Below, piece after piece: positions 1,287-3,604 of a stretch of 12,541 nt of DNA. The stretch is from a virus. The notes beneath the pieces are model-generated. The model did no database searches and had not been told where the DNA came from. It was given only the letters and a program-made list of their open reading frames with translations. Where the stretch lies: UHGV virus genome UHGV-0189011. The stretch is one strand, 5' to 3'. Position 1 is the first letter of the stretch. The number at the start of each line of letters is the position of its first letter. A program made the translations under genes and the position numbers.

Positions 1287-1526
1287 ATGACCCAATCCGT
1301 GTTGCTGCCACCGGGGCCTTTCACCCGGAGACAAGCGCAAGCGGTCACTACCACGTACAGCAATATCACACTCGAAGACGACCAGGGCAGTCACTTCCGT
1401 CTGGTGGTTCGTGATACTGAAGGCCGGATGGTCTGGCGGGCATGGAACTTTGAGCCGGATGCCGGTGAAGGTCTTAACCGCTATATCCGCACCTCAGGCA
1501 TCCGTACAGACACGGCCACCCGCTGA
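1287..1526 (+). CDS. ykfF: DUF905 family protein (YkfF-like), 79 aa
   Basis: ATG at 1287 with AGGAG SD (1275-1279); product [20 protein letters not shown]... matches the recalled YkfF/DUF905 family. The longer ORF from 1074 is rejected because it overlaps the upstream gene and terminator. Confidence 0.7.
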
Positions 1527-1623
1527 TCGCGAAGCATTTACCCGCATTCACCTCCCCGAACACACTTTATATCCCCATACGCCAGCCATCGCCGCTGGCG
1601 TTTTTATTGACGGAGACATACCC

Positions 1624-2082
1624 ATGACAACACAGACGCAGCACGACCTCGCACCCGCTAACCAACCCGAATTTGAACTGACCGTCACGCCGGTCCCCGA
1701 TGAACAGCGTATCGATTTCTGGCCACAGTACTTTGGCGCTATCCCGCAGTGGCTACTCCTGGAGCCGCATATCTTCGCCTGGATGGATCGCTTCTGTGAG
1801 GGCTACAGCGGTGGTATCTGGTCGTTCTACACCCTCAGCAATGGCGGCGCATTTATGTCCCCCGAGCCTGACAACGATGAGACATGGCGTCTGTTTAACT
1901 GCCTGAACGGTAACGATGCCCAAATGAGTGCAGAAGCAGCAGGTATTGCTGTCTGCCTGATTGCGTATAGCCACCATGCCTGCCGTACAGAATGTGACGC
2001 GATGACCGCACACTATTACCGCCTGCGGGAGTATGCCATGCAACATCCAGAGGCTCACGCCATTCTGCGTATTATCGACTGA
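1624..2082 (+). CDS. yafX: antirestriction protein, KlcA/ArdB family (YafX/YfjX-like), 152 aa
   Basis: ATG at 1624 with GGAGA SD; product MTTQTQHDLAPANQPEFELTVTPVPDEQRIDFWPQYFG... is typical of the enterobacterial island antirestriction family; stop TGA 2080-2082. Confidence 0.75.
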   Translation: MTTQTQHDLAPANQPEFELTVTPVPDEQRIDFWPQYFGAIPQWLLLEPHIFAWMDRFCEGYSGGIWSFYTLSNGGAFMSPEPDNDETWRLFNCLNGNDAQMSAEAAGIAVCLIAYSHHACRTECDAMTAHYYRLREYAMQHPEAHAILRIID

Positions 2083-2097
2083 CCGAAGGAGCAACAG

Positions 2098-2574
2098 ATG
2101 AAACAGCTTTCCTTTTTACCCGGCGAGATGACGCCACAGGACCGGCGTCTCATTCAGCGGGCGCTCAGGGCTCTGGACCGCCACCTGCATGAGCCCGGCG
2201 TAGCCTTCACCTCTACCCACGCCGTACGTGAATGGCTGCGACTGCATATGGCCGCGCTTGAACGGGAAGAGTTCCGGGTGTTGTATCTGGACAACCAGAA
2301 TCAGTTGATTGCCCATGAAACGCTCTTCACCGGCACGATTAACCGCACCGAGGTGCATCCCCGGGAGGTGGTCAAACGTGCTCTGCACTTCAACGCGGCG
2401 GCGGTGATACTCGCGCATAACCATCCTTCCGGCGAGACGACACCTAGCCAGGCCGACAAAACCCTCACGCAGCGACTGGTTCAGGTGCTTCAGCTGGTGG
2501 ATATCCGTGTCCCTGACCATCTGATTGTCGGTGGCAGGCAAATCTATTCGTTCGCAGAACACGGTCTGCTTTGA
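2098..2574 (+). CDS. ykfG: RadC-like JAB/MPN domain protein (UPF0758; YkfG/YfjY/YeeS-like), 158 aa
   Basis: ATG at 2098 with GAAGGAG SD; JAMM-like motif HNHPSGETTPSQAD in the product; stop TGA 2572-2574. Confidence 0.8.
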   Translation: MKQLSFLPGEMTPQDRRLIQRALRALDRHLHEPGVAFTSTHAVREWLRLHMAALEREEFRVLYLDNQNQLIAHETLFTGTINRTEVHPREVVKRALHFNAAAVILAHNHPSGETTPSQADKTLTQRLVQVLQLVDIRVPDHLIVGGRQIYSFAEHGLL

Positions 2575-2582
2575 GGTATTAC

Positions 2583-2804
2583 ATGAAAATTATCAGTAAA
2601 CGCAGGGCAATGACGATATACCGCCAGCATCCTGAGTCCCGAATCTTTCGCTACTGCACCGGCAAATACCAGTGGCACGGTAGCGTCTGTCATTACACCG
2701 GCAGGGACGTTCCGGATATCGCCGGAGTCCTCGCGGTATACGCCGAACGCCGCCAGGACCGCAATGGGCCCTATACCTGCCTGATGAGCATCACCCTGAA
2801 CTGA
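2583..2804 (+). CDS. ykfH: DUF987 family protein (YkfH-like), 73 aa
   Basis: ATG at 2583 (the track ORF from 2571 begins with TTG); product MKIISKRRAMTIYRQHPESRIFRYCTGKYQWHG...; conserved position between the RadC-like gene and the antitoxin in CP4-type modules. Confidence 0.65.
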   Translation: MKIISKRRAMTIYRQHPESRIFRYCTGKYQWHGSVCHYTGRDVPDIAGVLAVYAERRQDRNGPYTCLMSITLN

Positions 2805-2822
2805 CAATAGTGGAGAACTGTA

Positions 2823-3140
2823 ATGAGCAACCCTACCAGGGGCCTGCAGCGGGAGATTACACTGCGCCTGGGAGCCCGTCTGGTGCAGGAAGGCAACCGA
2901 CTGCATTATCTGGCTGACCGGGCCAGCATCACCGGCAAGTTCAGTGACATCGAATGCCGGAAGCTGGATGAAACATTCCCGCACTTTATCCGCCAGATGG
3001 AATCGATGCTGACCACCGGTGAACTCAGCCCCCACCATGCCCACTGCGTTACCCTGTACCACAACGATTTAACCTGCGAAGCCGACACCCTTGGCAGTTG
3101 CGGCTACGTATACATCGCCATTTACCCCACTCAGCGTTAA
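2823..3140 (+). CDS. yafW: type IV antitoxin, CbeA/YeeU family (YafW-like), 105 aa
   Basis: ATG at 2823 with GGAGA SD; product contains [18 protein letters not shown] and [18 protein letters not shown], characteristic of YeeU/YafW/YfjZ antitoxins; sits directly upstream of the CbtA-family toxin. Confidence 0.8.
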
Positions 3141-3160
3141 TTACCTACACGAGAGCAAAC

Positions 3161-3502
3161 ATGAAAACTTTACCTGCAACAACTCAGCGGGCGGTGAAGC
3201 CCTGCCTGTCACCCGTGGCTGTCTGGCAAATGTTACTGACACGTCTGCTGGAACAGCACTATGGTCTGACAATAAACGACACGCCATTCTGCAATGGGGC
3301 TGTGATTAAGGAACACATCGATGCCGGTATCACCCTAGCCGATGCCGTGAATTTTCTGGTAGAAAAATACGAGCTGGTTCGTATCGACAGGAAGGGATTT
3401 AGCTGGCAGGAACAATCTCCTTATCTCCGGGCTGCAGACATTCTGCGAGCGCGGCAGGCAACTGGCTTGTTGCGGCAAAGCCGTAACAACGTAGTACGAT
3501 GA
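3161..3502 (+). CDS. ykfI: type IV toxin, CbtA/YeeV family (YkfI-like), 113 aa
   Basis: ATG at 3161; product [43 protein letters not shown]... with [14 protein letters not shown] and [11 protein letters not shown], characteristic of YeeV/YkfI/YpjF toxins; 20 bp downstream of the antitoxin gene. Confidence 0.8.
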
Positions 3503-3567
3503 ACATTGCGTACAACCTTCCCGATTTACATTTCTGAACTTCCTCCCTTGTTTACCTATTGCGTAAT

Positions 3568-3604
3568 GCGCCTGCTACTACCCGGCAGGCGCGTTATCTT
3601 TTTA
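3568..3604 (+). terminator. putative rho-independent terminator downstream of the toxin gene
   Basis: Perfect 8-bp GC-rich inverted repeat gcgcctgc / gcaggcgc (3568-3575 and 3585-3592, 9-nt loop) followed by gttatcttttta. Confidence 0.5.

Follow-up and report, generated by a model that had tools for sequence, protein, structure and literature searches.

The virus genome UHGV-0189011 (12,541 nt; this whole stretch is called the window below) carries, at positions 1287-3604, a cassette of six genes that encode members of the DUF905, antirestriction, RadC-like, DUF987, CbeA and CbtA families. We found this cassette to be an already known, annotated and partly studied block, three genes of which are without a tested role. 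Its linkage is not reciprocal: it concerns a four-gene core and runs one way. On balance, and with modest confidence, we favour the interpretation that the cassette serves establishment and maintenance, through effectors that act largely independently of one another.

Judged by sequence, the six genes are the CP4-6 set ykfF-yafX-ykfG-ykfH-yafW-ykfI of Escherichia coli K-12 (Table 1). The cassette DNA (1287-3604) was 99.8% identical to an E. coli K-12 F-prime record, the RefSeq gene names agreed, and ykfH was 100% identical to that of MG1655. Because of this near-identity, an initial annotation made from the window's sequence was correct in what it observed, but concerned a known, annotated block. 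Its family assignments were right, each protein matching its own Pfam family nearly end to end (E from 1.8e-39 to 2.2e-67), and the genes are, as it had stated, intact and co-directional [six plus-strand open reading frames (ORFs), 1287-3502]. Protein lengths were 79, 152, 158, 73, 105 and 113 amino acids, compared with medians of 79, 152, 159, 73, 105 and 113 in 80 related loci (see below). The left third of the window holds nine genes on the same strand, six of them the cassette. In the closest complete genome ykfF has an internal stop; in the window it is intact.

A megablast comparison with 5,426 complete E. coli genomes identified the region as a CP4-6-type island end, and matches to the left part of the window end at 3929 in most E. 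coli. The position at an island terminus, also claimed in the initial annotation, was upheld by a repeat of the 3′ part of thrW at this point and by the collapse of homology between loci soon past the CbtA stop: anchored in the 3′ end of CbtA, homology extended over more than 100 nt in 31% of pairs and over more than 1 kb in 3%. In 15 of 60 loci, the downstream flank held a complete tRNA-Thr or tRNA-Met gene at a distance of 0.16-3.4 kb. In the window, the two thrW repeats bracket an 8.5-kb prophage remnant whose integrase gene adjoins thrW. Because the repeat pair brackets this later insertion, the cassette ends 364 nt from a displaced copy of the attachment (att) site. We identify the region as the distal backbone block of a tRNA-integrating island of the CP4-6/CP4-57/CP4-44 type.

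Related loci were collected by an alignment-based scan for DUF987 with one genome per species, and the best-scoring 80 of 173 were kept. They represent about 33 genera and include Yersinia, Serratia, Hafnia, Erwinia, Brenneria, Xenorhabdus and Morganella; the cassette genes in them were located by tblastn with the window's proteins. RadC and CbeA were present in all 80 loci, CbtA in 78 and ArdB in 74, and a DUF905 gene adjoined ArdB in 46. The four-gene core from RadC to CbtA was found in 78/80 loci and the five-gene set from ArdB to CbtA in 73/80. All six genes occurred in 45/80, 41 of which had them in strict order with DUF905 no more than 400 nt from ArdB. Gene order and strand were the same in all loci. 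The linkage is thus conserved outside E. coli, but the invariant association of all six families described in the initial annotation fails at ArdB and, above all, at the adjoining DUF905 gene. Around DUF987 it holds for RadC, CbeA and CbtA, in one direction only. Pairwise distances were correlated between the six families (r 0.43-0.81), and therefore the block diverges together. A wider backbone was also conserved, consisting of GTPase, DUF932 and WYL genes followed by an optional ypjK-yafY-ykfB. In the closest complete genome (locus L001, 5190-6306), a gap of ~1.1 kb without an annotated gene lies upstream of the island GTPase gene and is a possible place for backbone regulatory or transfer signals.

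DUF987 was found in 13,655 copies in 4,871 of the 5,426 complete E. coli genomes, with a median of three and up to 13 copies per genome. We dropped a reciprocal co-occurrence estimate from E. coli DNA counts, since the toxin gene diverges beyond the reach of blastn and the 13,655 places for DUF987 and 7,696 for CbtA are therefore not comparable. The search for CbtA homologues listed only relatives of at least 86% identity and gave no distant contexts.

Such a constant neighbourhood could mean that the linkage is functional and obligatory, the RadC-like JAB enzyme and DUF987 being accessory parts of CbeA/CbtA in a four-component core. For example, the enzyme could be a protease that removes the antitoxin or a host factor to free the toxin, and DUF987 could inhibit it or serve as its adaptor. 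The presence of RadC and CbeA in all 80 of the DUF987-anchored loci fits this idea, as does the spacing: ykfH starts 8 nt past the RadC stop in the window, and the distance was at most 30 nt in 79/80 loci. Purifying selection acts on each of the six genes, with ratios of nonsynonymous to synonymous substitution (dN/dS) of 0.11-0.24, and DUF987 had the lowest value (0.11; ArdB 0.16, DUF905 0.24). At the protein level, DUF987 was found on 58 plasmid records and CbtA on 67, mostly the same large plasmids. Published work adds that the type IV pair lacks autoregulation and any known trigger (PMC5371832), that the paralogue LfgB is reported to cleave the antitoxin MqsA (PMC10846083), and that plasmid RadC-like genes pair with a small neighbour, DUF3085, in a predicted complex (PMC12826799).

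The occurrence of the parts elsewhere speaks against an obligatory unit. Among 72,556 plasmid records, 1,978 matched some part of the cassette, and 85% of these were conjugative, but at least 80% of the cassette was present on just 11. Beyond those 11 and one partial Klebsiella cassette, the matches listed held the RadC part or the DUF905 part alone. A pOXA-48-type IncL plasmid encodes a JAB protein 61% identical to YkfG after a DUF3085 gene, with an antirestriction gene downstream; such genes thus occur on plasmids that lack the CbeA/CbtA pair. An IncF plasmid has a DUF905 gene, 62% identical to ykfF, with ardA on one side and psiB-psiA on the other, in agreement with PMC12826799. A Klebsiella record has ArdB-RadC-CbeA-CbtA without DUF987, and a Plesiomonas plasmid has ArdB-CbtA-RadC. 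Conversely, on two Vibrio plasmids the most distant DUF987 homologues (42-50% identity) occur by themselves, surrounded by small hypothetical genes, in one case near toprim and tra genes (L085, 6001-6207) and in the other beside an orphan DNA cytosine methyltransferase (L086, 6001-6162); no RadC, CbeA or CbtA was detectable around either. The IncHI plasmid pNDM-CIT carries the five-gene unit without the island backbone, in a run of genes on one strand that also includes a DNA methyltransferase and a RES/Xre toxin-antitoxin pair. Phage genomes were essentially without the cassette (one 3.2-kb record).

Apparent fusions of RadC and DUF987 among the 230 family representatives were rejected as evidence of coupling, as these were rare, chimeric or deletion ORFs and no true fusion was among them. 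Many of the long 'DUF987' ORFs consist of the N-terminus of another island gene (Ag43, DUF932, ArdB or WYL), an alternate frame of the RadC 3′ end and DUF987, and the chimeras (proteins P0247-P0259) always join from the same point (GPSDS...). The Ag43-DUF987 join at locus L088 (4723-5400) is a deletion at a short microhomology and was present in 2 of 5,426 complete genomes. A direct experiment has also been published: a yafX-ykfG-ykfH-yafW-ykfI clone was as toxic as yafW-ykfI alone (PMC5371832). Since co-expression of the three upstream genes left YkfI toxicity unchanged, independent action is favoured, and we regard a four-component toxin-antitoxin core as unlikely.

The transcription signals divide the cassette. 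In the initial annotation, the six genes had good ribosome-binding sites and were bracketed by two candidate terminators (1237-1271 and 3568-3604). The first point applies to five genes, in which GGAG or GAGG precedes the ATG by 6-8 nt; for ykfI there is just a weaker GAGAG. Downstream, the terminator was confirmed and is strong (-22.5 kcal/mol, z score -3.6). A terminator-like site was found within 200 nt past CbtA in just 25/78 loci. The upstream hairpin is modest, with a 6+5-bp stem containing one mismatch, followed by UUUUCUUUU (-18.7 kcal/mol, z score only -1.8), and a consensus terminator scan did not pick it up; in 32/46 related loci, DUF905 was preceded by a terminator-like hairpin at a distance of no more than 120 nt. 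A third terminator-like hairpin, in the yafX leader, had been missed (8-bp stem, -14 kcal/mol, z score -2.4). Across species it is the best conserved of the three: its GCCAGC/GCTGG stem is fixed and its loop variable. The motif was present in 47/74 ArdB leaders, namely in 40/42 of those with DUF905 preceding ArdB and in 0/19 of those with DUF932 preceding. Because this hairpin divides ykfF from yafX, what the two outer signals bracket is not a single unbroken unit of six genes.

The spacing of the genes points the same way. From yafX to ykfI, gaps in the window were 8-20 nt, and the medians in the 80 loci were 11 nt for ArdB-RadC, 8 nt for RadC-DUF987, 18 nt for DUF987-CbeA and 20 nt for CbeA-CbtA, the yafW-ykfI gap in the window likewise being 20 nt. 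The gap between DUF905 and ArdB, however, had a median of 96 nt and was never below 51 nt. The tight gaps as against the wide one, together with the conserved hairpin between, define a five-gene operon (yafX-ykfI) and a separate DUF905 gene; ykfF is a small unit of its own with terminator-like hairpins on both sides. This anatomy agrees with published data: the CP4-57 paralogue is treated as an operon, yfjXY-ypjJ-yfjZF (PMC10846083; operon tables in PMC4448311); in K-12, ykfB mRNA was detected and ykfF sense mRNA was not (PMC5389530); and the K-12 toxin and antitoxin genes show low-level transcription (PMC5371832). An antisense RNA of ~500 nt opposite ykfF (1287-1526, minus strand) has also been reported in K-12 (PMC5389530).

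Table 1. Cassette genes, transcription signals and tRNA-related features of the window. Gene coordinates include the stop codon.
Feature	Position	Strand	Description
ykfF	1287-1526	+	DUF905, 79 amino acids; Pfam PF06006, E 4.4e-43
yafX	1624-2082	+	Antirestrict (predicted ArdB/KlcA type), 152 amino acids, first in five-gene operon; Pfam PF03230, E 1.8e-39
ykfG	2098-2574	+	RadC-like JAB/MPN metalloenzyme family, 158 amino acids; Pfam PF04002, E 5.7e-47
ykfH	2583-2804	+	DUF987, 73 amino acids; Pfam PF06174, E 3.5e-40
yafW	2823-3140	+	CbeA-family type IV antitoxin, 105 amino acids; Pfam PF06154, E 1.7e-49
ykfI	3161-3502	+	CbtA-family type IV toxin, 113 amino acids; Pfam PF06755, E 2.2e-67
Terminator-like hairpin and U-run after ykfB	~1236-1271	+	Ends 15 nt before ykfF ATG
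Conserved hairpin GCCAGC-loop-GCTGG and T-run, yafX leader	1579-1601, T-run to 1609	+	~20 nt before ATG
Intrinsic terminator, operon end	stem 3563-3597, T-run to 3604	+	14-bp stem, then CTTTTT
Displaced thrW 3′ part and 18 nt of flank	3866-3929		64-nt direct repeat with 12437-12500, 94% identity
thrW, intact tRNA-Thr(CGT)	12455-12530	-	Sole Rfam match is this tRNA

YafX matched the solved structures of ArdB (2WJ9, E 3.5e-71) and KlcA (2KMG, E 1.3e-23) and is predicted to be an antirestriction protein of this type; relief of type I restriction in vivo has been reported for ArdB and KlcA (PMC2836571). YkfG matched the RadC homologue 2QLC. Its metal-binding motif H107-x-H109-x7-S117-xx-D120 and E90 were invariant in 78/78 sequences except for S117 (77/78), which identifies YkfG as a predicted RadC-like protein of the JAB/MPN family with the catalytic JAMM motif intact. 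The pair yafW-ykfI has the arrangement of a type IV toxin-antitoxin system, with CbeA directly upstream of CbtA on the same strand, and YkfI of the window was 98% identical to a protein of that name. In such systems the toxin inhibits FtsZ/MreB, and the antitoxin opposes it at the target instead of binding the toxin. YkfF matched a solved nuclear magnetic resonance structure entitled 'ykfF' (2HJJ, E 7e-51). DUF987 is a small family, with 205 clusters at 90% identity, all named ones from Enterobacterales, and, at 50% identity, 230 in a set of 1.84 billion representatives. Structure prediction, which the initial annotation had proposed, gave a confident AlphaFold2 model for DUF987 (predicted local distance difference test score 87) without a fold relative, and no relative of solved structure was found. 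DUF905 and DUF987 are indeed without an assigned role. The statement that only ArdB and the toxin-antitoxin pair have roles is outdated, as the paralogue YfjY (LfgB) is a reported protease (PMC10846083) and the YkfF structure has been solved.

Functional work on these genes predates our analysis. Wen et al. (2017) described the arrangement shared by CP4-6, CP4-57 and CP4-44, reported 76-95% identity between CP4-6 and CP4-57 proteins, and found K-12 YkfI to be a toxin that interacts with FtsZ and whose effect YafW counters (PMC5371832). Fernandez-Garcia et al. (2024) renamed the CP4-57 operon lfgABCDE and reported that its RadC-like YfjY (LfgB) cleaves MqsA (PMC10846083). An antirepressor role of YkfH was considered and set aside, as YkfH, YeeT and YpjJ were negative in a published test as DicA antirepressors (bioRxiv 10.1101/2023.04.14.536235).

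Another reading is that the host has recruited the operon as a stress-response module, as has been proposed for the CP4-57 paralogue lfgABCDE; in that model the RadC-like protease degrades MqsA and thereby derepresses rpoS. In its favour are the identity between CP4-6 and CP4-57 proteins and the reported binding of MqsA upstream of the CP4-57 operon (PMC10846083). By the authors' own account, however, the biochemistry is weak: the YfjY protein was insoluble and contaminating proteases were not excluded (PMC10846083). Moreover, the block is present in several copies per E. coli genome and is spread over about 33 genera and IncHI plasmids, a pattern that fits element-level selection rather than a host regulon. 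A stress-response module accounts for a K-12 phenotype but not for the distribution, and it leaves ArdB, DUF987 and the toxin-antitoxin pair unexplained. As the explanation of the block as a whole we consider it very unlikely.

Toxin-antitoxin pairs often act against phage, and defence genes are frequent in islands at tRNA hotspots. The cassette as a whole or the toxin-antitoxin pair in it might accordingly be an abortive-infection system carried for the benefit of the host. None of the nine proteins tested matched a PADLOC defence model (E ≤ 0.01), ArdB is a counter-defence rather than a defence protein, and the related plasmid genes adjoin anti-defence and SOS-inhibition genes. We hold an anti-phage function to be highly improbable.

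The initial annotation had suggested a coupled anti-defence or addiction unit for island establishment. The anti-defence and addiction components fit published frameworks, but the idea is not new, is not demonstrated, and met a negative result in the one direct coupling test, that of YkfI toxicity (PMC5371832). In the establishment and maintenance block that we favour, ArdB would blunt type I restriction as the island arrives in a new cell. As an intact JAB metalloenzyme, the RadC-like protein would act on a host or DNA-associated target, and DUF987 would be a small partner or effector. CbeA/CbtA would be a type IV toxin-antitoxin pair acting on FtsZ/MreB that penalises loss of the island and perhaps delays division. 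Rather than forming one molecular machine, the genes would be kept together mainly by common descent, co-transcription and horizontal spread together with the entire backbone. When the genes are expressed, what the RadC-like protein acts on, what DUF987 does and whether the cassette has a part in transfer are points that we infer.

Several observations weigh against this interpretation. Our loci were the best-scoring 80 of 173 hits and were anchored on a single family, DUF987, and the co-occurrence figures are therefore one-sided. Within the Enterobacterales, DUF987 was found outside the RadC-CbeA sandwich just in rare deletion or degenerate variants, and this rarity hints at tighter coupling than independent effectors would have. 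We know of no oriT (origin of transfer) or transfer function of CP4-6-type islands, and none turned up in the window, which was not compared with an oriT library. A long single-stranded DNA promoter hairpin of the Frpo type was not present in 1-4200, where the arms of inverted repeats measured no more than 21 nt and none lay upstream of the cassette. The promoter scan of the window gave no sigma-70-like promoter upstream of ykfF or yafX, each of which has a terminator-like hairpin 15-22 nt before its ATG. As there is no room for a promoter between hairpin and ATG, the expression of both must depend on read-through or antitermination. Finally, a host-level role has been published for the RadC-like paralogue YfjY (PMC10846083).

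Some of these points would suit a different arrangement, in which the RadC-like JAB protein and DUF987 form an obligate two-protein effector tied to CbeA/CbtA as a four-gene unit. The hairpins before ykfF and yafX would silence it until an island-encoded or entry-linked antitermination event, making the cassette a gated establishment/addiction switch for tRNA-integrating islands. We give this some weight because DUF987 is rarely out of place in Enterobacterales and is the most constrained gene, and because no promoter fits between either hairpin and the ATG of ykfF or yafX, but we judge it distinctly unlikely.

The K-12 CP4-6 block has the same genes in the same order and the same thrW-side position, but in the window an 8.5-kb prophage remnant lies between the cassette and thrW. 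The paralogous sets yfjX-yfjY-ypjJ-yfjZ-ypjF (lfgABCDE) of CP4-57 and yeeS-yeeT-cbeA-cbtA of CP4-44 have the same order, 65-95% protein identity and operons in the literature. They are, however, separate island copies at other sites, and the claims of LfgB protease activity and MqsA binding concern the CP4-57 copy and not ykfG.

Plasmid leading regions cluster antirestriction and toxin-antitoxin genes (Samuel et al. 2024; PMC11541004). Like the cassette, their anti-defence islands combine, on one strand, an antirestriction gene, a toxin-antitoxin pair and small genes of unknown function. Homologues of DUF905 and of the RadC-like gene occur in such regions, and the five-gene unit is part of one on pNDM-CIT. 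In contrast, the cassette is chromosomal and has no known oriT, relaxase or single-stranded DNA promoter; none was found adjoining it. As no oriT is known and no hairpin resembling a single-stranded DNA promoter was found, membership of this class cannot be claimed, and the resemblance is limited to content and neighbourhood. In this context, many E. coli islands have been described as having an oriT alone, in whose vicinity their anti-restriction genes lie (Ares-Arroyo et al. 2026; bioRxiv 10.64898/2026.01.13.699239).

In their account of the polyvalent proteins that conjugative elements encode, Iyer et al. (2017) list RadC and CbtA/YeeV as effector domains exclusive to such proteins, alongside antirestriction domains, and predict a nucleic-acid-processing role for RadC (PMC5512222). 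The domains of the cassette, in contrast, are encoded by separate small genes of an operon rather than joined in one polypeptide, and DUF987 and DUF905 were not among the terms found in PMC5512222. The DUF3085-RadC pair of IncL/M plasmids likewise places a JAB protein beside a small protein, but there the small partner belongs to another family and lies upstream of RadC, with no CbeA/CbtA nearby.

The DNA beyond the cassette yielded some further observations. A 34-codon ORF without a Pfam match (3618-3722) lies in the AT-rich spacer between the operon terminator and the att repeat. In the prophage remnant (3930-12436), tail-fibre and baseplate genes are followed directly by neck and head genes and then by the integrase gene (11607-12440). 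Its head genes were ~96% identical to those of Citrobacter phage Omnitron. No complete E. coli genome had at least 80% of 3500-12541 in one place. A 20-nt direct repeat (95% identity) lies close to the att copy at 4035-4054 and again within the 3′ end of the integrase gene at 12388-12407. At one site it and the 64-nt att repeat follow each other in the opposite order from the other site, which may reflect chance or the scar of a rearrangement.

What the RadC-like protein acts on, what DUF987 and DUF905 do and what turns on the operon are real but long-standing questions, and were not newly exposed by the window. Our analysis adds the extent of the linkage, which is one-way and covers a four-gene core, an operon boundary at a conserved hairpin, and the independent life of the parts on conjugative plasmids. 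Many pathogenicity and fitness islands end in this block, which is among the most repeated accessory DNA in E. coli. Should the RadC-like enzyme and DUF987 be entry or counter-defence effectors, this would give functions to three widespread families, and it would help to explain how islands without transfer genes of their own become established.

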